From a virus (lineage: Duplodnaviria > Caudoviricetes): DNA of 58,353 nt. This document shows positions 17,928-48,877 of the stretch, in pieces. The position numbers and the translations under genes were made by a program. Position 1 is the first letter of the stretch; each line of letters starts with the position of its first letter. A model generated the notes under the pieces. The model was not told the DNA's origin. It did not search any database and saw only the letters and a list, made by a program, of their open reading frames with translations. Location of the stretch: the IMG/VR virus record IMGVR_UViG_3300020283_000004, positions 1 to 58,353 of that record. One strand, 5' to 3'.

Positions 17928-18319
17928 TGGGTAAAGCAGGTAAATACAACATTGTAATAGAAGAAGGTTCTACTTTTGGGTTGGATCTTCTCTATAAAGA
18001 CTCTTCTGGTGATAGACAAAATTTATCCTCGTATACAGGAAGAATGCAGATCAGAGATTCTCCTGGTGGGGATTTAATAGATAGTACAGATTCAAATATA
18101 AGAATAGGCCATAAAGTACAAAATGGAACATTTGTAACATCTGGTTTGGGTGATGCTACGACCACCCATCAATCTAATATTTCCATAGAAATATTTGCAG
18201 CACACACAGCAAACTATGATTTTGAAAAAGCTTTCTACGACATAGAAATACAATCAGGAAATCATGTAGAAAGAGTCATAGAAGGTAGTGTCACTCTCAG
18301 TAGAGAAATAACTCAATAA
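17927..18319 (+). CDS. Tail-associated beta-sandwich protein
   Basis: YNIVIEEGSTF, YTGRMQIR, YDIEI and RVIEG.V.LS.EIT motifs. Confidence 0.7.
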   Translation: MGKAGKYNIVIEEGSTFGLDLLYKDSSGDRQNLSSYTGRMQIRDSPGGDLIDSTDSNIRIGHKVQNGTFVTSGLGDATTTHQSNISIEIFAAHTANYDFEKAFYDIEIQSGNHVERVIEGSVTLSREITQ

Positions 18320-19968
18320 TGGGAAACACAGTAACAGTAAATACTACGACTAATGTTGTAGAAGTAAAATCACCTGGGACACCAGGACCAGCAGGATCAG
18401 GTTATATTCTCCCTATAGCAACCTCATCTGTTCTTGGGGGTGTTAAGGTAGGGAGTCGCTTGACGATTAACTCATCGACTGGGGTTTTGGATGCTAACGA
18501 CCAGTCCTATACCTTACCCACAGCAAGTTCCTCAGTTCTTGGGGGTGTCAAGATTGGGAGTGGACTTACTATGGATTCAAACACTGGGGTTCTGACAGCT
18601 AATCCTGGTGGTTATTCTCTACCTATTGCTTCTTCATCAGTTTTGGGTGGTTTTAAGGTTGGCCTCAGACTTTCAATAAATTCTACTACTGGGGTGTTGG
18701 ATGCTGCTGACCAAAGTTACACATTGCCCCCAGCAACAAGTTCAAGCTTAGGTGGTATAATAGTTGGGAGTAACTTGTCTGTGACAAATACTGGGGTGTT
18801 GAGTGCTAATGCCCAGTCATTAACACCTGCAACATCATCTGCTCTGGGTGGGATTAAAGTAGGCAGTAATCTCAGTATTACATCTGATGGGACACTCAGC
18901 GCAGCAAGCTCTTATAGCCTCCCAATAGCAACATCTAGTGTACTTGGTGGTATTAAAATTGGTCAAAGACTTACGATCAACTCTTCTACTGGGGTACTCG
19001 ATGCAGATGATCAAAGTTACACACTCCCGATAGCCACATCATCAGCACTTGGAGGAATCAAAGTTGGGGCAAGACTTACAATCAATTCCTCAACAGGAGT
19101 GCTTGATGCAAATGATCAAAGCTATACTCTTCCCACTGCAAGTAGCTCCGCATTAGGTGGGGTAAAGGTAGGGACAAATCTGACGATAGACGGGAACGGG
19201 GTATTGAGTGCAGGCCCAATAGCTCTTACTACAGTACAGACCGCTTCTAGCCAATCTGCGATGTTGGCCCTTACCACGCAGGAAGGTGATGTGGTTGTCA
19301 GATCCGATCAAAAGAAGACATACATGCACAATGGAGGTTCTGCGGGAAGCATGTCTGACTTTACTGAGCTACAAACACCTGACGATGCAGTAACAAGTGT
19401 TAATGGTCAAACGGGTGTTGTCAGTCTTACAATTCCATCAGGTAATATTGTTGATGATACTTCTCCACAACTTGGTGGGAACCTTGATGTAAATAACCAG
19501 GATATTGTAACTACCTCAAATGGTAATATTGATCTTGACCCAAACGGTAGTGGCAAGGTTGTATTTAAGGGAAATGCTACTAAAGGCTCAGGTCAGTTTG
19601 TTCTTAACTGCGAAAATAATTCGCACGGCATAATTGTTAAAGGACCACCCCATAGTGCAGGAGCTAGCTATACACTGACACTACCAAACAACACTGGCTC
19701 ATCAAATCAAGCATTATTAACAGACGGAAATGGAGTTCTGTCTTGGGGTTCAGTTAGCTCGCTTCCTTCTCAATCAGGTAATGCAAACAAGGTACTGACA
19801 ACTGATGGGACTAATGCTGCTTGGGACGAGTATGAAGGATCAGTTCTTAACCAAACAATATCAGCATCTAAAACAATTCCATCGGGTAATTCATTCGTAA
19901 TTGCAGGCCCAGTAACTGTAGCGTCAGGTCAAACACTAACCGTCAGTGGGACAATGAAGGTAATATGA
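18319..19968 (+). CDS. Tail/head fibre protein with 8 tandem ~31-35-aa repeats
   Basis: LPxAxSxxLGGxKVG..L.I...GVL repeats, VTSVNGQTG, DTSPQLGGNLD.N and YTLTLP motifs. Confidence 0.85.
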   Translation: MGNTVTVNTTTNVVEVKSPGTPGPAGSGYILPIATSSVLGGVKVGSRLTINSSTGVLDANDQSYTLPTASSSVLGGVKIGSGLTMDSNTGVLTANPGGYSLPIASSSVLGGFKVGLRLSINSTTGVLDAADQSYTLPPATSSSLGGIIVGSNLSVTNTGVLSANAQSLTPATSSALGGIKVGSNLSITSDGTLSAASSYSLPIATSSVLGGIKIGQRLTINSSTGVLDADDQSYTLPIATSSALGGIKVGARLTINSSTGVLDANDQSYTLPTASSSALGGVKVGTNLTIDGNGVLSAGPIALTTVQTASSQSAMLALTTQEGDVVVRSDQKKTYMHNGGSAGSMSDFTELQTPDDAVTSVNGQTGVVSLTIPSGNIVDDTSPQLGGNLDVNNQDIVTTSNGNIDLDPNGSGKVVFKGNATKGSGQFVLNCENNSHGIIVKGPPHSAGASYTLTLPNNTGSSNQALLTDGNGVLSWGSVSSLPSQSGNANKVLTTDGTNAAWDEYEGSVLNQTISASKTIPSGNSFVIAGPVTVASGQTLTVSGTMKVI

Positions 19969-37808: not shown

Positions 37809-37823
37809 TTATTGTTTGTAAGC

Positions 37824-40800
37824 ATGTCTAAACTCACTGATTACCTAAATACTCTCCCAAGAGGTACAAGACCTTGGGATGCCTGGAAGACAAGAGAGCT
37901 CTATCTTAGAAGACTTCTTGATGACGATCAGTACAGTGAACAAGAGAAGAATCGTCTGATAGGGCATTACATTGGGCAGGAGCCTGAGAATGTAGACGTA
38001 TCGAACACAGTTGCTGGGTACTTAGATCGCACGGCTGCGATGACTAAGAACTCTGCGATGATTGGGGTAAATCAGTTACGTCAATATTTCAATGAGCAAG
38101 AGTATTTTGGTGAACGGGATGAAGTAGACGCAAAAGCTGCTAGAGAACAAGTCACCAAATATAGAGGACTTCAAGAGTCGATCCCAAGAGATGAAGGGGC
38201 ATTAGGTGTTGCCCAAGATGTTGTTTCATCACTCCCATCCTTGATAGAAAACTTAGCTGCATCAGTAACAGCAGGGTATGCAGGGGCTAAGGTAGGTACA
38301 GCTATCGGTACTATGATTGCCCCAGGTGCAGGTTCTGCCATAGGGGCAGCTACTGGGTTTGTTTCTGGGATACTTGCAGGTTTAGGGGTCAACGCTGCGA
38401 TGGAAGCGTCATCTGCATTTGATGATAACTCCAGAAATGAAGAAATTAGAAAAAGACTTGTCAACAAGTATGGAGATAATAAAGACCTAGTTAACCAGGC
38501 ACAGAGAGCTATCGCATTAGAAGCTGCGGAAGCGGTTATGAAGGGTAACGTGTTTGACCCAACGAACATAGCTGTTGCCATGGCTAACACAAAAGGTGGT
38601 CAGCTATTCAAAGGATTTCTTCTAGGTAAGGCAGGCATTAAGCCTAACAAGTTTAGAAATAAATTAAGGGTAACTAAAGACACGATAGGGGGTGTAGTAC
38701 AAGAAGGAGTCCAGGAGAGTTACCAAGATGCACTACAGCAATCACAAACACTTTATCAGATAGCAAAGCTCGATGCAGAAGCAGATCCAGACTCACAAAA
38801 AGTCCCAGACATCCTTGATGTCGTCAAAGATATCGATTATGGACAGACTGCATATGCTGGCTTGGTCGGTGGTATTGCTGGGGGTGGTTTCTCTGGCTTG
38901 CGGTCTGCTGGTGGGAAGTTTGCTGATCGTAAGCGTGAGAAGATACGTCAAGAGATTCGTGACGCAATAGACAGTGGGGACTTAGATCGGTTCAATGACA
39001 CTCGTAATTTCTATCCTATTGACTCCGCAGAGAGAGTTGTTATTGAGCAAGAGATTAAAGATGTTCGTGAAGGTATTCACGTTGACCATAGAGTCGATAA
39101 AGACCTCACACGCTATGACATGCGTAACCAACTCGCTAATGCCATGGCAGAAGGTGAGAAAGCTTTCGATTCCTTTATAAGAAAGAACAGAAATAATCCT
39201 CTCTTCTCTGATGTAGTTAACGACTACTTCGATAAGCTTAGATCTGCACAGGCTACAGCGCAGTCACAAGCAGAGATTGACAGAATTCGCAATCAAGTTC
39301 TTATTGGTTATAACCCAGGTGAGTTTAGTCTAGAAGATCTCAAATTTAGAGAGGGAGAGGGCGGGATCACGGATCTTGATGAAGCGAGAAAAGTAACCCC
39401 AGGTGACCCATCAGGCAGGTTTGGTGGGAATCAGGGTATTGTTGTTGATCAGGCATACACACCTCCAGAGTTTGCACAGAGAACCCCAAGAGAAAGAGGG
39501 CAAAGACAGCTAGAGGATCTGACAATTCCTCTCAGCCAAAGACAACAAGCTAGAGCACAGGAAGAAAAAGCAACCATAGATCTAGATAAAGCTACTAAGT
39601 CTCAACTTATTAGCTATATCAACGATGACAAAGTTTCAAAAGGCTTAGAGATTACTGGGGAGGACACTAGATCTTTAATGAAACTCAGGAAGGCTAAGCT
39701 GAAAGAAATGGCTAAGTCTATTGAGGCCCAGAACGTAACCCCAACAACTGATACCCAAGAAACAACAGCATCTACTCAAGAACAAGTTGATGAGAATGTA
39801 GAAACAAGTCAGAGAGAACCAGAACCAGCACCTGTCCAGACGGAGGAGGAAAAACAACAGATAGAAGAGTTAAGAGAACAATTCTTAACAGAATACAATG
39901 AGAGTGATTCTCAATTTAGACGAAGGGATCGTGATGTAAAGGGAAATCCTTTCAAAGAAATCAGTTTAAGAAAGGGAGATGAGGAACAAGTCTACACAAG
40001 AGAAGACCTTAATGAACTAGGCTACCTCACTGATACTGGTGAGATTATAGATGCAAAAATACAGAATGACCTAAAAGAAAGATTTCCCGAACCAGAACAA
40101 ACGCTCGATCAAGGGGATCAGCAAACAGATACAGAACAACAACCTGAGCAACAAGTTACAGAACCAGAAGATGGTGATACCACAGCGCAAACTGAAGATG
40201 TTGTTACTGAGACTACTGTAGAAGAGGAACAAGACCAAGCGGAACCAAGTCTTACCGCAGATGATATTACAAACTTCATATCAATATTAAGACCCGACCC
40301 AAACACATACATTGTAGACGCAAGAAAGACAAAAGATGGAACAGATCTGGATGCGGTTGAAGTTGCCGTTTTTAACGATAAAAAACAAGAGTATGACCAA
40401 TATGAGATTGATCCGATTAAGGCTAGAGCACTTGGAATTGTTAATCAGGAGAATGAAATTGATGAACAAGCTGTTGCGGATTATGCCAGTCGATCAACTG
40501 AGCCCGAAACGGCACAAGGAGATACTCAAGCAACTCGTACAGAAACTGAAGACGCAGAGGGGGTGACAGTAGTACCTGTACAGAGTTCTGTACTTCCTGG
40601 TCAAGCTGAGATTGATGAGGATGTTGAACCTGAAACAAGAGAGCAGAGAGCGCGAACTGAGAACAATGTAGCTTACATCAATGAAAGTGGGAGTGCCGTA
40701 GTCAACGAAGCTCTTGGGATTAAGAACTCTCAACAGCGTGCTTCACTGGCAAAAATGGCTAATGACCTTAATCTTCAGGAGCTAGAAGATCTTGATGGGG

Positions 40801-43800
40801 TTATTTTTATTAAGTCAAAGGGTAAAAAGAAAGATCAATTCAGATACAAAAAAGGCCAACTTGAATCAGGTAGAAATGATAAAGGCAATAACATCACAGT
40901 CTCAAAAAGCCTTGTCAATCGCCTCAAAGAGTATGCAGATCAGAATGATATAAAAGTTATAGTCATAGATGATGATGCCCCACTTCCTACTCTCGGTGCT
41001 GATTATAAGACTGAGAACTACCGTGTTGCGGTAGCCCAAACTTTCCTGAAAACGTTTGGTTCACTATCTGGGGAACAGTTTATAAGCAAGACAGATACTC
41101 AAGGACCAAAAATCTTCTCCGTTAATCCTGGAGAGACCCCTGTTGCTGGTGAATCTGTTCAAAAGACTGGTGGGTCAGATAGCCCAATGGCAGAAATTAT
41201 TGAGTTGGTTGCGAGTCAGGGAATACGTGATGGATATGTTGCCCCTGCTGAAACTGAAGGTGAGTTTGTTGTTAATCTTTACCTTGACGAAGAGCAAAAT
41301 GTTTCAGGTGTGGAAGGCCCAGCAATCAAGGCAATAAGAATCCCAATTAAAGGTGTAAGCGAAAGCAATCTTGTTGATTTTGTTGAGACACTAAAGAACC
41401 CAGAGTCTAAGACAGAGGTAAGAAGGGAGTCCCCACTCTTCAGCATAGCACCAAGCTCTGAAGTAGGTTCAGGTCGGTATGATCGCACAGTCGTTGATGA
41501 AGCCGTTGCCCAGTTCACAAGAGAATACAGAGGTGGTGCTCTACTAAACTACAAAGTCTACGATACCCCAGAGCAAGCACAGGCAGAAACAGGTATCGAG
41601 TTCAATGCTAATGCTAGGGGTGCGTTAGTAGGGGATCAGGTCTATCTGTTTGCTAAGAACCTCAGAGACTTGCAGACAGCAAGAAAGGTTATCTTTCACG
41701 AATCAATTGGTCACTACGGAATCAGAAACGTTCTTGGGGATGATGACTTTAACAGCTTTCTTGATCGTGTCATAGCGGAGAGAAAGGTTGATGTTGATGC
41801 CAAAGCGAAGAAGTTGCTCAAAGCTAAAGTTATCAAGCAAATAGACAATGATGGGCTCAGATTAGCAGCAGAAGAACTTGTTGCTGAGGCAGCAGAAGGA
41901 AGGGCGAACAAGAGCTTCATTGATAAAGTCATTGAGATCATCAGTGACTTCCTATCCAAGCATTTTGGAAGAGTACAGCCTGATGAGATTCGGTCCATGA
42001 TTCTCAAAGCAGAGAGAGCCTTCAAGACTGGGGAGCTTTACTTTGGTGCAGATCGATCTGCTTATGGTGACTTCTTCAATGCTCAGTATTCACTAGGAAT
42101 AGTGATGGACAAGGGGCAAGTACCCACTGAGTTGCAAAGAGCCTTGGACTATGTAGGCAGGGAACTCGCAATAGATGGAAATCTAGATACATGGGAAAGG
42201 CTTAGGGACACCTATAGCAAAGCTATAGAGCAGAGAGATATGAACGTTCAGGATAAAATCAGAGACTTACTGAATAAAGCCACATATCTTTCAATAAGAA
42301 AAGCATCAGAGAATGGTGGGTATTATGTACTTCCAGATGGGGTTTGGAGATTCCATGTCAACGACTTTGACAATGATGGTAACTTGTTATGGGACTTCAA
42401 GACTCTCCCAAAAGACTGGATTACTGGGGCAAGGGACAATGACTTTGCTTTTGACAACTTGTTTGAGTCAGAACAAAAGATAGTAGAGCTTGCCCAGCAG
42501 GGGTTGATTAAATACAACAAAGCAGAACCACACCCAAGGTTTGAAAGATACCCACAAGATGTTATTGCAATAAGACTTAGTGATTTTGTAGGGCATAAAG
42601 AACTCGAAAGGTTATACCCAGATCTCTTCGAGAGTGCAGAGATCGTATTCAAGATGCCTACAAGCAGACCTGTTAAATTCCTAGGCACTCCTGCTCTCGA
42701 AACTAGGCTTGGATCGGCAGGTTCAGCAAAATCAAAATTCGCAGAAGATGGTCGTGAAGTCATAACCTTTGAGATCAATGCAGAAAGCAACATCACTGAT
42801 GTTATGAGTACATTGGTGCATGAACTTACACATGGTTTCCAAACAGTAGGGAATGCTGCCATGGGTGGTTCTAGTGCAGTTGATTATGAGGGTCTTAGAG
42901 TATCAACCTACTCAGATATTTTACGTGCAGTCAATGAATCATTCGGCGCTCTGACTCCCGAAGAGAGAACCAGTCTTATTGACTACATAAAAAAACTGGA
43001 AGCCAATACAGAATCTCCACGCTATCAAAGAAAAGCTATCTTCAAAACTCAGGTTGGCGAAGAAATAAGACTTAGGACTGGTAGGTCATTCGCACTTGAC
43101 CAGGAGGTTGCTACGTCCTTATGGAATATCTACAACACTTTTACTGGGGACAAGACAGATAAATCTGCGTTCTGGTTTTATCAGTGGGCAGCCCAAAATA
43201 AAGCAACAGCAAAAGAAAGATTTGGTCAAGATTCTGATGAACACAATAGAGCAAAAGATGTTCATCGTCTTCTAGCAAACACATTCAATCGTGGTAACAG
43301 GTCTATATTTGATAGAAGATCACTGCTTCAGGCTCGTTCAGAAAACCCAATGAGAAGCATGGAGAACTACCAGTCTCTTCTTGGGGAAGTTGAAGCAAGA
43401 CATCACCAAAACCAGTTTCGTCAGTCGATCATAGCCCTGAGAGAAGGTGATATGGACACCTTCAGAAAGACTAAGGACGCTGGGGCATTGGCTCTTGGCA
43501 GAAGGTTGAGAATAAAGTTCAGTCCTGATGAAGAGCTTCAGATGCTTGGAGAGCAAAGCCAGCTAGTAGACCAGCCTGTATTCAAGATAGAGGATATGCT
43601 TGTTAAGTATCCTGGTCCTAACAAAAGCAACCCATCTCGTGAAGAGCAGATTCGGTACAGCATAGCAGAGAACGAAGATGTCCCGATCAGGTCTGAGAGA
43701 GAAAGCGGATCAGCCCCAACCTGGATGTCCCCAGAAGAGAAAGCCGTATGGATGAAGTTTGGAGATCCACATGCTGGTAAGAGTATAGGGGAGAAGTTTG

Positions 43801-46454
43801 GGAAGTGGAGAGAAAACTGGTGGACTAAAGTTCGTCAGGGCATGTTCGACAAGTTTGCCCCACTCAAGAATCTATCACCTAAGTCTTACATTTTAGCAAG
43901 AATGAGCCGTTCAACAGACGGACCTTTCTCTGCAATGTTCTCACTCGGTCATATCTTCATGGATGAGGATGGTGCGATTGATGTCGATACCTCCAAGAAA
44001 TCATTCGTAGAAAGCATGCGACCCCTTGGTCAAGACCTTGAAACGTTCCTACGTTGGGTTGCCTCTAATCGTGCCTACGACCTAAAGAAAGCACCCAAGT
44101 CAAGGGATGCCCTACAGTTTCTGAATGATGATGAGATACGAATAGGGATGAACTTCAATCGTGGGACTACAATCAATGCCGTAACTGGGCAGAAGGTATC
44201 TCGAAAGAAGTTGTTCGATGATGTGCTCAAGGACTTTCAAGCGGTTCAATCATCAATACTGGATCTCTCAGTCAAGGCAGGAGCAGTCAGTAAGAAGGAT
44301 GCCGACATATGGAGAAACCAGTTCTACGTACCTTTCTATCGTGTCTTTGACGAAGCCCCAACCAGAAGAAATGGTCCTGCTACTTTAGACAGTCTTGTTG
44401 GTCAGGATGCAGTTAAGAGACTCAGGGGGTCTGACAGGGGCCTTGCTGATTTATTGCACAACACGTTGATGAATTACCATCATCTCATTGATGTGTCGAT
44501 GAAGAACAAAGCAGCAACTCAGTCTATTAGAGATTTGGAAAAGATTGGTGGTGCAACAAGAGTTTCAAAGAAAGGCTTTCCACTTGAGGAAGGAGACAGG
44601 CAGGAGTTTGCTCAGGAACTAAATGATGCGGATGATAAACTAGAGTTTATCGCTGAACCAGATGCAGGGCAGACAGTCTACATACGAGAAGATGGGAAGC
44701 GTGCTTACTATAGAATCAATGACCCATTTGTATTGGAGGCATTGATGTCTATGAACTCGATTGAGAAAGACAACCCAATCTACAAAGTGCTGAGAACAAG
44801 TAAACGATGGTTTACTTATGCAGTAACAGCAGACCCTGACTTCAAGGTAGCTAACCTGATTCGTGACTCTATTGGGTCAATCGCAGTGGCCCCACTTGGG
44901 TATAACCCTCTTGCTAATGTGAAGAGAGGGTGGAGAGGAACGCAGAAAGACTCAAAAACCTACGCTAAACTTGTTGCAGGTGGGGGTTCTTTTATATTTG
45001 GGAATGTATCTGGGACAGACCCAACAAGTGAAGGAGCACGAAGATTAATAGAGAGTGGAGTAAAGTCTGAGTTTATTATCGATAGTCCAGACAAGTTGTC
45101 AGGATTAGAGAGAATGATGAAGACAGGTTGGAATCTAGCTAGAGGAGCATGGGGTAAGTACGAAGATGTGGGTACACGACTAGAGAATGTTAACCGTGCA
45201 GCTTTATACGAAAGACTCACAGACCCAAACAGAAGAGACAAAGATGGTAATAGAATAGCCCCATTGTCCCACCTTGAGGCTAGCTATGAGGCCAGAGATC
45301 TCATGGATTTTTCCAACACAGGAAGTTGGGGAATGATTCAGTACATTGCTCAGTGGAGTCCATTCCTTAATGCCAGACTACAAGGTGCATACAAGTTAGG
45401 AAGAGGTGCAGTTAGTGAGAACCAAAGAGTCCAGTTTGCAACAACGATGTTGGCCTACACAATGGCAGCTTTGGGGCTTTATCTTACACACATGGATGAT
45501 GAGGACTTCAAAGAAAGAGAAGAGTGGGATCGTGATACTTACCACTGGTTTAAGATACCAGGATTTGAACAGGCGATAAGAATACCAAAAGCCTTTGAGG
45601 TGGGTACAGTAACCACTATGGCAGAGAGAATGCTTGAGCAGGTGATCGATGAAGAGGCTACTGGGAAATTGTTTGCAGAGAGAATGCTATTTGCTCTGAC
45701 GAACACATTTGCGATGGACCTAAGACCTCAACTTCTACGCCCAATCATTGATATCTATTCTAATAAGAACCCATTCACAGACAGAGCCATTGAGTCTTTG
45801 AGTATGAATAACCTCAATATAGAGGAGAAGAGAAATGCTTATACCTCAGAGACTGCAACGCTATTATCCAGAATCAATGCAGATACAATAGGTTGGGATG
45901 CTGTGAACTTGTCCCCAGTACAAATAGAATATGCGGTTCAGGGAATGTTTGCCTGGATAGGGACATCTGTACTCGCAGCAAGTGACTCTATTGTAAGAAT
46001 GATAAATGGGAAGGAGCCCCCAGATAATGGGTTCAACTCTATACCTTTTGTTCCTTCAGGGGTGGGAGAGATAGTAGGTAGCTCAGTAAGAAGATTCTTC
46101 CCAGACATGGATAGCCCAAAGAGAAGCACTAAATATACGACTCAGTTCTATGAGCAACTGAAGGAGATGAACCAGACCTTTAGCACAATTCGTGAGCTAA
46201 GACAGCTTGGTGACATAGAGCGTGCCATGGAACTAGAGAAAGAGGAGAGAGTTCTGCTTCAATACAGAACAAGTTACAATAGAATACAGAGAAGAATCTC
46301 TAAGTTGAGGACTCAGATGCAACGTATCGCCAACGATCCGAATATGGATGGGGATCTGAAGCAGATGCGAATAGACCGCATGCAAGCGTTGATTAATGCT
46401 AACATCAAAGTCCTTCAACGTAGAACCAATCAAAGATTAGCAGAAGCTAGCTGA
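37824..46454 (+). CDS. Giant polyvalent (ejected) protein with zincin-like motifs and LPD38-like C-terminus
   Basis: HESIGHYG, DGVWRF, HELTHGFQ, LLGEVEAR, YVPFYR, PFLNARLQG, RIPKAFEVG and LSP.QIEY motifs; ATG 37824. Confidence 0.82.
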   Translation: MSKLTDYLNTLPRGTRPWDAWKTRELYLRRLLDDDQYSEQEKNRLIGHYIGQEPENVDVSNTVAGYLDRTAAMTKNSAMIGVNQLRQYFNEQEYFGERDEVDAKAAREQVTKYRGLQESIPRDEGALGVAQDVVSSLPSLIENLAASVTAGYAGAKVGTAIGTMIAPGAGSAIGAATGFVSGILAGLGVNAAMEASSAFDDNSRNEEIRKRLVNKYGDNKDLVNQAQRAIALEAAEAVMKGNVFDPTNIAVAMANTKGGQLFKGFLLGKAGIKPNKFRNKLRVTKDTIGGVVQEGVQESYQDALQQSQTLYQIAKLDAEADPDSQKVPDILDVVKDIDYGQTAYAGLVGGIAGGGFSGLRSAGGKFADRKREKIRQEIRDAIDSGDLDRFNDTRNFYPIDSAERVVIEQEIKDVREGIHVDHRVDKDLTRYDMRNQLANAMAEGEKAFDSFIRKNRNNPLFSDVVNDYFDKLRSAQATAQSQAEIDRIRNQVLIGYNPGEFSLEDLKFREGEGGITDLDEARKVTPGDPSGRFGGNQGIVVDQAYTPPEFAQRTPRERGQRQLEDLTIPLSQRQQARAQEEKATIDLDKATKSQLISYINDDKVSKGLEITGEDTRSLMKLRKAKLKEMAKSIEAQNVTPTTDTQETTASTQEQVDENVETSQREPEPAPVQTEEEKQQIEELREQFLTEYNESDSQFRRRDRDVKGNPFKEISLRKGDEEQVYTREDLNELGYLTDTGEIIDAKIQNDLKERFPEPEQTLDQGDQQTDTEQQPEQQVTEPEDGDTTAQTEDVVTETTVEEEQDQAEPSLTADDITNFISILRPDPNTYIVDARKTKDGTDLDAVEVAVFNDKKQEYDQYEIDPIKARALGIVNQENEIDEQAVADYASRSTEPETAQGDTQATRTETEDAEGVTVVPVQSSVLPGQAEIDEDVEPETREQRARTENNVAYINESGSAVVNEALGIKNSQQRASLAKMANDLNLQELEDLDGVIFIKSKGKKKDQFRYKKGQLESGRNDKGNNITVSKSLVNRLKEYADQNDIKVIVIDDDAPLPTLGADYKTENYRVAVAQTFLKTFGSLSGEQFISKTDTQGPKIFSVNPGETPVAGESVQKTGGSDSPMAEIIELVASQGIRDGYVAPAETEGEFVVNLYLDEEQNVSGVEGPAIKAIRIPIKGVSESNLVDFVETLKNPESKTEVRRESPLFSIAPSSEVGSGRYDRTVVDEAVAQFTREYRGGALLNYKVYDTPEQAQAETGIEFNANARGALVGDQVYLFAKNLRDLQTARKVIFHESIGHYGIRNVLGDDDFNSFLDRVIAERKVDVDAKAKKLLKAKVIKQIDNDGLRLAAEELVAEAAEGRANKSFIDKVIEIISDFLSKHFGRVQPDEIRSMILKAERAFKTGELYFGADRSAYGDFFNAQYSLGIVMDKGQVPTELQRALDYVGRELAIDGNLDTWERLRDTYSKAIEQRDMNVQDKIRDLLNKATYLSIRKASENGGYYVLPDGVWRFHVNDFDNDGNLLWDFKTLPKDWITGARDNDFAFDNLFESEQKIVELAQQGLIKYNKAEPHPRFERYPQDVIAIRLSDFVGHKELERLYPDLFESAEIVFKMPTSRPVKFLGTPALETRLGSAGSAKSKFAEDGREVITFEINAESNITDVMSTLVHELTHGFQTVGNAAMGGSSAVDYEGLRVSTYSDILRAVNESFGALTPEERTSLIDYIKKLEANTESPRYQRKAIFKTQVGEEIRLRTGRSFALDQEVATSLWNIYNTFTGDKTDKSAFWFYQWAAQNKATAKERFGQDSDEHNRAKDVHRLLANTFNRGNRSIFDRRSLLQARSENPMRSMENYQSLLGEVEARHHQNQFRQSIIALREGDMDTFRKTKDAGALALGRRLRIKFSPDEELQMLGEQSQLVDQPVFKIEDMLVKYPGPNKSNPSREEQIRYSIAENEDVPIRSERESGSAPTWMSPEEKAVWMKFGDPHAGKSIGEKFGKWRENWWTKVRQGMFDKFAPLKNLSPKSYILARMSRSTDGPFSAMFSLGHIFMDEDGAIDVDTSKKSFVESMRPLGQDLETFLRWVASNRAYDLKKAPKSRDALQFLNDDEIRIGMNFNRGTTINAVTGQKVSRKKLFDDVLKDFQAVQSSILDLSVKAGAVSKKDADIWRNQFYVPFYRVFDEAPTRRNGPATLDSLVGQDAVKRLRGSDRGLADLLHNTLMNYHHLIDVSMKNKAATQSIRDLEKIGGATRVSKKGFPLEEGDRQEFAQELNDADDKLEFIAEPDAGQTVYIREDGKRAYYRINDPFVLEALMSMNSIEKDNPIYKVLRTSKRWFTYAVTADPDFKVANLIRDSIGSIAVAPLGYNPLANVKRGWRGTQKDSKTYAKLVAGGGSFIFGNVSGTDPTSEGARRLIESGVKSEFIIDSPDKLSGLERMMKTGWNLARGAWGKYEDVGTRLENVNRAALYERLTDPNRRDKDGNRIAPLSHLEASYEARDLMDFSNTGSWGMIQYIAQWSPFLNARLQGAYKLGRGAVSENQRVQFATTMLAYTMAALGLYLTHMDDEDFKEREEWDRDTYHWFKIPGFEQAIRIPKAFEVGTVTTMAERMLEQVIDEEATGKLFAERMLFALTNTFAMDLRPQLLRPIIDIYSNKNPFTDRAIESLSMNNLNIEEKRNAYTSETATLLSRINADTIGWDAVNLSPVQIEYAVQGMFAWIGTSVLAASDSIVRMINGKEPPDNGFNSIPFVPSGVGEIVGSSVRRFFPDMDSPKRSTKYTTQFYEQLKEMNQTFSTIRELRQLGDIERAMELEKEERVLLQYRTSYNRIQRRISKLRTQMQRIANDPNMDGDLKQMRIDRMQALINANIKVLQRRTNQRLAEAS

Positions 46455-46952
46455 TCAAGTATCTTCGGGGAGCTCTACATTCCTGCGTAGGCTCCTTCGT
46501 TTCTTCTTCATCATACTCCCAAGCATAGCTGTACGTGCCATTGCATCGGCATGTTGCTTTCTCTGGTCATCATCCAGAGCCTGAATGTCTGTATGCTGAA
46601 GCCGAGTAGCTGATCGATCCAAAGCCTTCTTTAGCTCTGCGTGCATCTGGTGTTCAGCCACGGATGCCTGATACTCAGGCTCAACATACGTATACCCAAC
46701 TCCACGTTTGGCTATCAGAAGAATCTTGTGATCAGTCAACAACATCTCCTTAAAGTTTTCAATCATGGTTAAGTATATCAGTTGAGTCTGCTGATACTTC
46801 TGTGTGGTTGTCTCTGGGGTAGGAATCTCCAACCCAAAGTTCTCGTACAACCATTCTTTCGTTACGACATCTCCAGGTTTAAACCCTTCCTCGATGAAGT
46901 TCTGCACTGCTTGTTTCCATTGTGGAAACAGCATCATCGTTTTATCTTCCAT
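46455..46952 (-). CDS. Accessory protein of the RAMP-array operon (possible winged helix + helical tail)
   Basis: AGGAG RBS just after the array; KRGVGY hairpin motif; basic C-terminus. Confidence 0.75.
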   Translation of the reverse strand: MEDKTMMLFPQWKQAVQNFIEEGFKPGDVVTKEWLYENFGLEIPTPETTTQKYQQTQLIYLTMIENFKEMLLTDHKILLIAKRGVGYTYVEPEYQASVAEHQMHAELKKALDRSATRLQHTDIQALDDDQRKQHADAMARTAMLGSMMKKKRRSLRRNVELPEDT

Positions 46953-46974
46953 AAACTCCTTGTGTTAAGTGTTA

Positions 46975-47708
46975 TCCGTTGCGCTCATTTCCTGTCTATT
47001 CAGTTTATATCTGCTCAGATACATTCCTTTCTTTTCTGATGAGATCGCTTACTTTATCTTCAGATGAGCTCCGTTCAAATACGCTCCGTTCAATAAGTTA
47101 AACCGTTCATTTCCAATCATTTGTGGGCTCTTCATTTCGGCTCCTCTTCGGTCAATTCATCTGTTCTCCGATCAATAATTTAAACCGTTCTTTTCCGTTC
47201 AGGTCCACTGTGCTGAAGTGTGCTCCCTTTTTTTCATTTGTGGTCCAATGCAGTGTGTTCCCCTACCCTGCTCTCAATGCTATTCTGATCATCTCCAATC
47301 CACTCCGATCCCTTCCATTTAATAAGTTAAACCGTTCCATTCAGGTCCACTACCCTGCTCTCAAATCGATTCTGATCATCTCCAGTCCACTCACTTCTAT
47401 TCCGTCCTCTTATTTCAAATCCTTTCCGTTTAATAAGTTGAACAACCAATCCGATCCTGTATCATCCACTCAGATACGCTGATTTGCGGTCAAGTCCCCT
47501 GTATTCCCCTGCGGTCCTTTCCCGTCCATTCCAATCAATAAAACATACCATTCCAATCCGCTACGCTCACCTGTATTCAAATCAAATCATCTCCTGTGAT
47601 GTCCAATCCGTTTAATAAAATTAACCGATCCATTCTTCTCACTTCCAGTCCGCTGTCCTCTGCTGTATTGTCCTCCAATCATCTCCCGTGTTTTACAGTC
47701 CGATTAAA
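46975..47708 (-). repeat. Seven-unit 5-nt-periodic array (RNA sense NN-GGA-like); putative guide RNA precursor
   Basis: On the + strand, 130 of 138 pentamers start with T and 98 have C second. Unit boundaries read T(C/T)AATAA-A/T-rich-ACC. Confidence 0.93.
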
Positions 47709-48273
47709 CAACCTCAACAGTGAAACGACCGTAAGAGTTCATGCGGTTCTCACACAACCCTTCGATCTCTCCGCACAACTCAAGGATCTCTATCACCTCA
47801 GACATGTTGATGATCTCCTCATTAACAGTAAGAGTGAAGGTAATCGACCACTCGTGAAAGATAGGACGACAAGTCATCACCTTACTGTTCTTCACGTTGA
47901 CCGATCTCACATCCCTGAACTTCTCGTTAGCCCATAATCCTTCGATATCTTTTGGGCCATCATATTCTATTGGGACTTCAGGTTGAGCTATCTGCACACC
48001 GCGTTGTATCTGTTTACCACGCTTTGAAAGCTTAGCCCCTGAACGGATCATTGCTCTCAATGCGTACCCAGGCATGACAGGTCTTGTCCCATCATGATAC
48101 AGTCCACCTTCCCACTTCAGACGATAGATCATCTCATGATCCTCATCTGTCTTAGTTCTCTTACCAGTATACTGTTTCAACTCTTTAGACAGTGGGTCTA
48201 AAGGGTTAGCTAATCTATCACTCTGCACCATTAACGGACTGACCCCTGTCAGCTTTATTTGCTTACGTTCCAT
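47704..48273 (-). CDS. Stand-alone RAMP (Cas7-like) protein
   Basis: IKLTGVSPLMV, PVMPGYALRAMIRSGA, CRPIFHEW, and terminal G-loop-like CGEIEGLCENRMNSYGRFTV; AGGAG RBS. Confidence 0.8.
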   Translation of the reverse strand: MERKQIKLTGVSPLMVQSDRLANPLDPLSKELKQYTGKRTKTDEDHEMIYRLKWEGGLYHDGTRPVMPGYALRAMIRSGAKLSKRGKQIQRGVQIAQPEVPIEYDGPKDIEGLWANEKFRDVRSVNVKNSKVMTCRPIFHEWSITFTLTVNEEIINMSEVIEILELCGEIEGLCENRMNSYGRFTVEVV

Positions 48274-48300: not shown

Positions 48301-48317
48301 GCCCCCATAAAGGGGGC
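48301..48317 (-). terminator. Hairpin between ssb and the RAMP gene
   Basis: GCCCCC-N5-GGGGGC with a weak U-tract. Confidence 0.5.
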
Positions 48318-48323
48318 GATTGA

Positions 48324-48704
48324 TTAGACAGCAGGACGCTGACTACGTGGCTCTCCACCAAGATCGTAAGAACTATCCTCTCTTGGTTTTTGTTCTGGGA
48401 ATATGTCTACGACACGAAAGGTTATGAACTTATCCTTGTTCTGAAAACGTGTGTGTACATGCACAACATCACCTTTCCTCAAAGAACGAATCGTCTTACC
48501 TTTACCTTTCCCAAAGTTATCCTTGGACTCGATGAACTCACAGTTCGCCCATGAGGTTTCATTGACCCAAGTGTTTGTGGTTTTATCCATGCGAGGCATG
48601 TCAACAGCAATACCAAACTTCAGGACAGTACCCCAATCGAACTCTTTTACTTCTGGGTCAGCACCAAGCCGACCTGAGAAGATACATAAGTTTTGACAAA
48701 ACAT
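48324..48704 (-). CDS. ssb: Single-stranded DNA-binding protein
   Basis: N.CIFSGRLGADPE, F.IAV, TSW.N.E and LRKGD.V.V motifs. Confidence 0.85.
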   Translation of the reverse strand: MFCQNLCIFSGRLGADPEVKEFDWGTVLKFGIAVDMPRMDKTTNTWVNETSWANCEFIESKDNFGKGKGKTIRSLRKGDVVHVHTRFQNKDKFITFRVVDIFPEQKPREDSSYDLGGEPRSQRPAV

Positions 48705-48728: not shown

Positions 48729-48877
48729 AGCCCAGGCTCGCTAAAACCTGGGCTAAGGAACGAAAATGAAAACGCACGTTTATATCCTGAGCAGGGCCAT
48801 GAGCAACCTGCCTCAAGGGTGACTGAAAAAGGAGAGCAATTCAGCCACCCACAAAGAGGAGATATAAACGCTGTGCG
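48729..48877 (-). ncRNA. Structured leader upstream of ssb
   Basis: A 10-bp stem (48777-86/48861-70) encloses two hairpins, with a further hairpin at 48729-54. Confidence 0.55.

Follow-up and report, generated by a model that had tools for sequence, protein, structure and literature searches.

Can VIPR, an RNA-guided system described only in 2026 and in all cases tested so far using GGY guides, also run on guides built around another triplet? The question is raised by a locus at 46455–48273 of the IMG/VR virus record IMGVR_UViG_3300020283_000004, a complete record of 58,353 bp (GC content 41.9%) that was analyzed at its full length and is referred to here as the window. On its − strand, a 189-aa open reading frame (ORF) is followed by a 751-nt spacer with a five-nucleotide rhythm and then by a 165-aa ORF. 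A sequence-only reading of this DNA had singled out the same unit, with a ribosome-binding site before the second gene, and its coordinates and strands were as claimed. The homologies, predicted structure and array grammar presented below make it very likely that the locus is a phage-borne VIPR system of the kind found in phage SUSP1 and in Pseudomonas, composed of Vipr and Vap1, which would work by the mechanism of SUSP1.

In the searched text of four bioRxiv preprints of 2026 (10.64898/2026.04.26.720920, hereafter the discovery paper; 10.64898/2026.04.26.720927, the cryo-EM preprint; 10.64898/2026.10.15.759431; and 10.64898/2026.10.21.760802), to which our use of these sources is confined, VIPR combines Vipr, a RAMP protein of small size, with the accessory gene vap and with vrRNAs made of 9–16 GGY/NN pentamers followed by a 3′ tail (discovery paper). 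One Vipr protomer occupies each repeat, with the GGY flipped out and held, while the NN bases pair with double-stranded DNA and pass over one base of the target at each step; rival mobile elements are thereby silenced at the level of transcription (discovery paper and cryo-EM preprint). The sequence-only reading had likened the locus to this architecture. The comparison was sound, both proteins of the locus being homologous to the SUSP1 pair. What it had proposed for the locus, namely a lone RAMP with one subunit per pentamer, a bound triplet, a gapped dinucleotide guide and a use against rivals, corresponds to the published mechanism and would hold here by analogy.

The Vipr and Vap1 homologues

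In BLASTP, the alignment between the 189-aa protein and SUSP1 Vipr (YP_009199429.1) spanned the entire sequence (69/191 residues identical, 36%, E 6e-40). In the PDB, the chain named 'SUSP1 Vipr protein' (36pp_D) was matched with E 4.2e-31 by the sequence and 3.4e-57 by a family profile of 57 relatives. The protein was assigned to phrog_4652 (5.9e-49), a family of unknown function, and neither Pfam nor PADLOC has a family for it. A tblastn search retrieved 130 phage records, 127 of them with at least 80% query coverage and most from FelixO1-like coliphages; the best match in a cultured phage was that of Pseudomonas phage LESphi2 (39.9% identity, E 1e-33). The family is large: at a threshold of E ≤ 0.001 it comprises 2,234 cluster representatives, and 1,653 remain when the threshold is lowered to E ≤ 1e-10.

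Structure prediction followed by Foldseek, a check suggested by the sequence-only reading, returned the RAMP/Cas7 fold that it expected. The AlphaFold2 model, built from the 57-sequence alignment, reached a predicted local distance difference test score of 96.8 and a predicted template modelling score of 0.89. Its top PDB matches were Csm3, Cmr4 and type VII Cas7 chains at E values of about 1e-6 (9g9e_D, E 1.1e-6; 6s6b_I, TMq 0.54; 8z4j_J), and 104 matches at E ≤ 0.001 stood among the best 500. The C-terminal G-loop aligns to that of SUSP1. The predicted model thus confirms a RAMP fold, Cas7/Csm3-like, for the window protein.

Class 1 CRISPR RAMPs polymerise along their guide with a fixed step. 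The window protein shares the fold of these backbone subunits (Csm3, Cmr4, type VII Cas7) at only 10–14% identity, and the Vipr family profile matched no Cas7 in the PDB; moreover, the class 1 step is 6 nt, whereas that of VIPR is 5 nt and its guide is gapped. The sequence-only reading had also reported no cas genes and no repeat–spacer array, which was borne out: Rfam gave 0 matches (no hammerhead included), PADLOC found 0 families among 2 + 49 ORFs and no cas gene, and none of six direct-repeat families formed a CRISPR repeat–spacer array. With neither a cas operon nor such an array at the locus, its likeness to class 1 CRISPR-Cas is one of fold only.

The 165-aa protein is similarly related to SUSP1 Vap1 (YP_009199428.1; 30% identity, E 1e-19) and to P21_8, the gene after vipr in LESphi2 (30% identity, E 5e-26). 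It falls into phrog_5926 (1.1e-33), again a family of unknown function. Pfam gave nothing above cut-off for this protein or 42 relatives, the PDB no match by sequence or profile, PADLOC no match, and the protein atlas only unnamed viral clusters.

The position of the two genes was compared across 98 Vipr loci, the window among them, which were sampled from IMG/VR (14), from metagenome contigs (the best 80 of 395 confirmed) and from three phage records. A Vap1-like gene was present in 68, lying downstream and on the same strand in 64, with a median vipr-to-vap1 gap of 38 nt. Gaps of more than 400 nt occurred only in the window and its close relatives, in L035 (GGC type) and in L051. The placement of an array between vipr and vap1 is therefore unusual but not unique. 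From the adjacency of vap1 and the similarity of Vipr, we infer that the locus would belong to type II of the discovery paper.

The pentamer array and its guide tracts

The array had been described as about 735 nt long and starting at the vipr stop codon. The start was right, as the first pentamer begins one base past the TAA, on the base that follows it; the length was not, the spacer measuring 751 nt. Identity at lag 5 was 0.436 in the spacer compared with 0.279 ± 0.016 (standard deviation) in 500 shuffles, in agreement with the claimed periodicity, and remained at 0.35–0.41 at multiples of 5 from lag 10 to lag 40, all other lags giving 0.22–0.29. When the whole window was scanned in 200-nt segments, lag-5 density averaged 0.260 (standard deviation 0.039) and reached 0.375–0.48 only across 46901–47700, with one other segment (4501) at 0.365. 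The period of 5 in the spacer is real. Tandem Repeats Finder did not detect the array because its copies are too dissimilar.

A dynamic-programming parse placed 725 of the 751 nt in 145 in-phase pentamers. Position 5 was A in 133, T in 10 and C in 2 (1.53 bits), which upheld the near-invariant A of the GGA/xGA scaffold noticed in the sequence-only reading. Position 4 was G in 98, C in 28, T in 15 and A in 4 (0.68 bit), and position 3 was G in 68, T in 41, A in 33 and C in 3 (0.37 bit). Positions 1 and 2 were hypervariable (0.09 and 0.07 bit), and the NN register was taken as these two positions. The predicted minimum free energy of the array RNA was −140.9 kcal/mol against −146.1 ± 4.1 kcal/mol in shuffles (z +1.28), 18 of 20 shuffles folding at least as well; the lack of a fold beyond that of shuffles fits a guide coated by protein. 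No solo vrRNA was found elsewhere in the phage, where only two in-phase runs of 5 pentamers lay outside the array.

The array divides into seven guide tracts (Table 1). Tracts 1–6 each end in a pentamer NNGGT followed by a linker of consensus TTAAnTTATTRA, and tract 7 has neither closing GGT nor linker. Among 16 linker sequences from the window and its relatives, RNAfold gave 0.0 kcal/mol for 7 and a lowest value of −4.7, and RNAalifold predicted 0 pairs across 12 linkers. We suggest that these AU-rich linkers may serve as cleavage sites for a single-strand endonuclease of the host, such as RNase E. Tracts 4 and 5 have in common a 58-nt stretch of 83% identity (47259–47316, 47346–47403), which on sequence is a partial guide duplication within the array.

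Table 1. Positions of the vipr, array and vap1 features and of the upstream gene, with tract counterparts in relatives L006–L008
Feature	Positions	Strand	Remarks
SSB-like gene, upstream of vipr	48324–48704	−	Pfam SSB 3.3e-5; phrog_44
vipr, 189-aa Vipr-family RAMP protein	47704–48273	−	homology to SUSP1 Vipr
vrRNA array, putative, 145 pentamers NN-x-G-A, seven guide tracts and six AU-rich linkers	46953–47703	−	from the parse
guide tract 1, 16 pentamers, closing pentamer NNGGT	47624–47703	−	no homologous tract in L006–L008
linker 1, 12 nt	47612–47623	−	
guide tract 2, 13 pentamers	47547–47611	−	homologous tract in L007/L008, 82–83% identical
linker 2, 12 nt	47535–47546	−	
guide tract 3, 18 pentamers	47445–47534	−	homologous tract in L006, 96% identical
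linker 3, 15 nt	47430–47444	−	
guide tract 4, about 19 pentamers, phase slip near 5′ end	47331–47429	−	homologue in L006
linker 4, 12 nt	47319–47330	−	
guide tract 5, 27 pentamers	47184–47318	−	no homologous tract in L006–L008
linker 5, 12 nt	47172–47183	−	
guide tract 6, 14 pentamers	47102–47171	−	in L006, NN identical, 5 differences at positions 3–5
linker 6, 12 nt	47090–47101	−	
guide tract 7, 24 pentamers, reaching the vap1 ribosome-binding site	46970–47089	−	99% identical in L006
vap1 homologue, 165 aa, accessory protein	46455–46952	−	AAGGAG before ATG

The resemblance to SUSP1 extends to the layout, since both systems are phage-borne, with vipr and then vap1 on one strand, pentamer guides on the vipr strand and no cas gene. 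The differences concern the guides. SUSP1 guides are of the GGT/NN type (T in 86% of parsed pentamers) and carry a pseudoknot tail of about 40 nt, whereas those of the window are xGA/NN and are separated by AU-rich linkers of 12–15 nt with no predicted pairing. Of the four SUSP1 vrRNAs, one precedes vipr and three come after vap1, and every one has a flank of its own; in the window, seven tracts of up to 27 pentamers lie head to tail between the two genes. Tracts that abut in this way are reminiscent of what the legend to fig. S18 in the discovery paper terms 'staggered arrays'. The Pseudomonas systems, represented by a P. fulva prophage in the preprints and by LESphi2, offer a second comparison: LESphi2 likewise has a Vap1 homologue directly downstream of vipr, but its arrays are GGC/NN and stand upstream of vipr, and its G-loop reads GLCDYRP...FGRF.

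By analogy with SUSP1, the − strand of 46953–47703 would be transcribed and bound by Vipr protomers, one per pentamer, each holding x-G-A and exposing the two variable bases. The exposed dinucleotides would pair with double-stranded DNA, skipping one target base per step, and the bound filament would block transcription of a competing mobile element. Vap1, a small accessory protein of DNA-binding type, would strengthen the effect.

The A-type scaffold, its putative reader and its relatives

In each of the 98 loci, period-5 tracts were called de novo on the vipr strand. This survey of homologues' DNA, also proposed in the sequence-only reading, revealed the pentamer grammar beside Vipr homologues in 86 loci, with no tract in 12, and the arrays of relatives lie on the vipr strand as in the window. 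The third scaffold base, read on that strand, was C in 58 loci and T in 9, the 67 loci of GGC or GGT type; in 10 loci it was A, and 9 were mixed. The A-type set consists of the window, L006–L010, L019 and L020 and, separately, L037 and L051. Their Vipr proteins are 94–99% (L006–L010), 61% (L019), 60% (L020) and 41–43% (L037/L051) identical to that of the window.

The purest A-type array is that of L020 (3056–3320), where 52 nearly unbroken GGA/NN pentamers show G at.90, G at.85 and A at.98, with a single NNGGT mid-array and no recognisable linker. Long xGA/NN arrays are also found in L037 (3068–3900) and L051 (3068–3700), punctuated only by GGT and 3–8 T-rich bases. In these two loci position 3 is nearly free (G.28–.35, T.31–.33, A.21–.28, C.11–.12), and the Vipr G-loop is GLSTYRPRFGRF.

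In a quick maximum-likelihood tree, for which 88 distinct proteins were used, the A-type loci fell into two clades, with Shimodaira–Hasegawa-like approximate likelihood ratio support of 92 and 100. The A-scaffold label required 3 changes on this tree compared with a mean of 6.9 after shuffling, and 0 of 500 shuffles were as low, a figure inflated by near-copies. The window and its close relatives, together with L019 and L020, carry the G-loop EGLCENR(M/T)N(S/G)YGRF, seen in 7 of the 269 Vipr-family proteins examined.

According to the cryo-EM preprint, the SUSP1 pocket for the third scaffold base (Y3) excludes purines sterically and is formed by E71 and M72 of helix-1 together with C173, residue 175 and R179 of the G-loop. 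Residues were mapped from SUSP1 to the window protein by pairwise and family alignments. In the pocket, E71 and M72 correspond to Y70 and A71, C173 to E171, V175 to L173, and R179, which makes a cation–π contact, to R177. Residue 175 is given as T in the text of the cryo-EM preprint and is V in the SUSP1 sequence as aligned (L003:28474–29061). As for the other contacts described for SUSP1, H17 and D177 (G1) are replaced by Q17 and E175, W178, which stacks on G2, by N176, and R138 (G2) corresponds to R136; K33, which touches the target backbone at the skipped base, corresponds to K33. Alanine mutants of R138, K33 and D177 abolish silencing in SUSP1 (cryo-EM preprint), and all three residues are kept or conservatively changed in the window protein.

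At the position of SUSP1 M72, the first A clade has A, C or A, where the other rows have N or M in 80 of 87; at that of W178 it has N, where the other rows have Y, F or W in 81 of 87. Such changes would suit a larger pocket of altered shape; as they stem from a single clade and are not shared by the second A lineage, they offer a lead rather than proof. An xGA relative of the solved Vipr, in which about ten pocket and G-loop positions differ, amounts to a natural experiment on scaffold recognition.

Near relatives indicate how the array changes over short distances. The order ssb–vipr–array–vap1 is kept in the IMG/VR relatives with 94–99% identical Vipr, and so is the xGA grammar (A in 92–93%), but tract sets and array lengths differ (659, 751 and 935 nt), and only some window tracts have counterparts (Table 1). 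Contigs from marine DNA runs show array deletions or replacements past which the flanking genes continue. The differing tract sets and the replacements are those expected from a turnover of guide sets, and arrays that differ between near-identical phages make this lineage a good place to study it. In a separate observation, a 245-aa DNA methylase (PF01555 N6_N4_Mtase, 4.9e-37) splits the array in two in L008 (4012–4749), as also in L010.

Within homologous tract pairs, differences per 100 sites at positions 1 to 5 were 5, 10, 18, 9 and 3, the L007 and L008 pairs not being independent; position 3 thus varied most and the A of position 5 least. In tract 6 compared with L006, 30/30 NN bases were identical and 5 scaffold bases differed. 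The pattern is that expected from selection on NN together with a first scaffold base that is only loosely read.

How far the scaffold can depart from GGY is partly documented. In the discovery paper, perturbed GGY motifs abolish silencing, and GGY>GGA is among the guide substitutions tested (legend of fig. S12B). The triplets GAC, CAC, WGT and TGH are reported beside Vipr-like folds (10.64898/2026.10.21.760802), and these non-canonical arrays share with the window a period of 5 and a fixed triplet other than GGY. The GGA/xGA motif is not named in the searched preprint text, and the motif figures and supplements, which lay outside that search, may catalogue it. Because NCBI nr includes one member of the 90% cluster to which the protein belongs, the PSI-BLAST survey of the authors is likely to have encountered it.

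VIPR and non-GGY repeats are thus already in print, and the picture of what VIPR is stays unchanged; the locus adds an xGA-type system whose Vipr is closely related to the solved one, and arrays joined by linkers. We give an even chance to a joint interpretation in which the VIPR scaffold has been re-coded by nature in this clade: Vipr would read the A, where the solved pockets of SUSP1 and P. fulva keep purines out, and barely the first G, the guides would be orthogonal to GGY Viprs, the long arrays would be processed at AU-rich linkers that lack a capping pseudoknot, and at least two lineages would have reached xGA independently. If the re-coding is true, the machineries of rival phages could neither use each other's RNAs nor be misled by them. 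The locus may also supply an orthogonal protein–guide pair for multiplexed DNA targeting.

Targets, alternatives and surroundings

Several observations weigh against a VIPR system with the SUSP1 mechanism. The scaffold itself departs from GGY, with A at position 5 in 133/145 pentamers and G at the first scaffold base in 68/145; as the discovery paper allows VIPR 'a related consensus' to GGY, this does not exclude membership. The structured 3′ tail (pseudoknot) of the SUSP1 clade is absent, and the tracts with 24 and 27 pentamers are longer than the 9–16 repeats given for vrRNAs. No single residue splits A-type from Y-type proteins: every one of E177, N178 and A72 (SUSP1 numbering) is also present in some GGY loci, and position 72 is N in the second A lineage (L037, L051). 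On the side of expression, the data came from a single RNA run (X20), whose only fitting contig (247 nt) lies on vipr (47935–48181) and which matched the array no more than partially, over 36 nt with 5 mismatches. No sigma-70-like promoter was found on the − strand from 48800 to 46953; a simple promoter scan gave 6 sites against 6.9 ± 2.6 in shuffles, none of them on the − strand within the array.

The last of these points concerns natural targets, of which searches of the phage genome itself, the other 97 Vipr loci, IMG/VR and the GTDB genomes yielded none, the scans of the two collections requiring 8–10 consecutive exact dinucleotides from one seed per tract and being far less sensitive than the published searches. 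In the own genome, with the array masked, registers 1–2 and 2–3 and skips of 0–3, the best matches equalled those of shuffled controls (for tract 1, 18/32 against a control mean of 19.6). In the 97 loci (403 kb), only homologous arrays rose above controls, at skip 3, and at skips of 0–2 none of the seven tracts had a match. Words of three variable bases (NNN) at skips of 0–2 gave nothing above shuffled controls in the own genome or in the 97 loci.

For IMG/VR, seeds were taken from tracts 1–6 under the rule of a 1-nt skip. They produced 9 matches for tract 1 (best 20/32), 15 for tract 2 (best 20/26), 8 for tract 3 (best 24/38), 19 for tract 4 (best 22/30) and 10 for tract 5 (best 29/54); tract 6 gave 0 matches with 10 dinucleotides and 15 with 8 (best 21/30). 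In the GTDB genomes, 9 dinucleotides of tract 6 gave 16 matches, the best (25/30) in a soil metagenome-assembled genome. None of the seed matches in the two collections extended past its seed beyond chance. Compared with codon positions 1–2 of phage ORFs, the NN dinucleotides scored +15.0 bits in sense and +8.9 in antisense, the SUSP1 control reaching only +0.9; in the other register the codon-composition fit was +15.8 under another model, and the comparison has no power.

Failure to find a target under the 1-nt-skip rule would also follow if the same VIPR machinery used another code, NNN-GA, with three variable and two fixed bases and a different targeting rule. Position 3 is weakly specified in the window (0.37 bit) and nearly free in L037 and L051, and the methods of the discovery paper mention NNNGG, YNNNG and NNNNG repeats. 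We nevertheless consider this code improbable. Position 3 is constrained in the window, where C occurs in only 3/145 pentamers, and is G in 90% of the 52 pentamers of L020; tract 6 and its L006 counterpart agree throughout positions 1–2 and differ at positions 3–5; and the NNN words fared no better than shuffled controls.

The missing target could also be expected of a worn or idle remnant, or of a decoy RNA soaking up the Vipr of a rival phage, and solo vrRNAs of satellites and phages that redirect or target other VIPR systems have been described (10.64898/2026.10.15.759431). Such an origin is very unlikely here. The array is flanked by an intact vipr and an intact vap1, position-5 A is kept in 92–93% of pentamers in the window and its relatives, and none of the seven tracts matched the 97 other Vipr loci at skips of 0–2. 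The scaffold also co-varies with the protein clade, and the array therefore fits its own Vipr.

A rhythm belonging to the DNA or to a protein (bent DNA, protein-binding iterons, a hidden ORF) and not to RNA can practically be dismissed, even with + strand ORFs of 119 and 113 aa overlapping the array, since codons do not repeat every five bases and the same grammar stands beside Vipr homologues in 86/98 loci. Among relatives whose Vipr is 94–99% identical, moreover, tracts have been exchanged, deleted or displaced by lengths that are not multiples of three, changes that no ORF would survive.

A VIPR system of the SUSP1 kind thus remains the preferred interpretation, and the lineage that carries it is frequent in marine metagenomes: runs of 9 studies contained DNA that matched a part of the window. 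The 90% cluster of the Vipr protein has 111 member sequences, the exact protein occurring on 51 contigs, and no Vipr relative was found in the GTDB genomes. The major head protein of the phage is at most 33% identical to that of any cultured phage, with Stenotrophomonas and Xanthomonas phages nearest. PHROGs assignments in the record include terminase, portal/adaptor, major head, tail fibre and internal virion proteins, and a − strand block holds RecE, Erf, DnaB, replication-initiator and SSB genes.

Three further elements were noted on the − strand around the SSB-like gene and vipr: a GC-rich stem-loop without a T run between the two (48301–48317), a terminator-like hairpin with a T run upstream of ssb (48729–48754), and a promoter-like site near consensus, TTGACA-16-TATTAT (49422–49395). 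On the other side of the locus, a + strand ORF of 2,880 aa (37812–46454) with the large-polyvalent-protein domain LPD38 (2.4e-28) is convergent with vap1 and ends one base from its stop. Elsewhere in the window, a 95-nt unit is repeated five times at a spacing of 105 nt (18403–19112, + strand; 65–71% identical), and these units are 35-residue coding repeats within a 549-aa tail-/head-fibre-like ORF (18319–19968).

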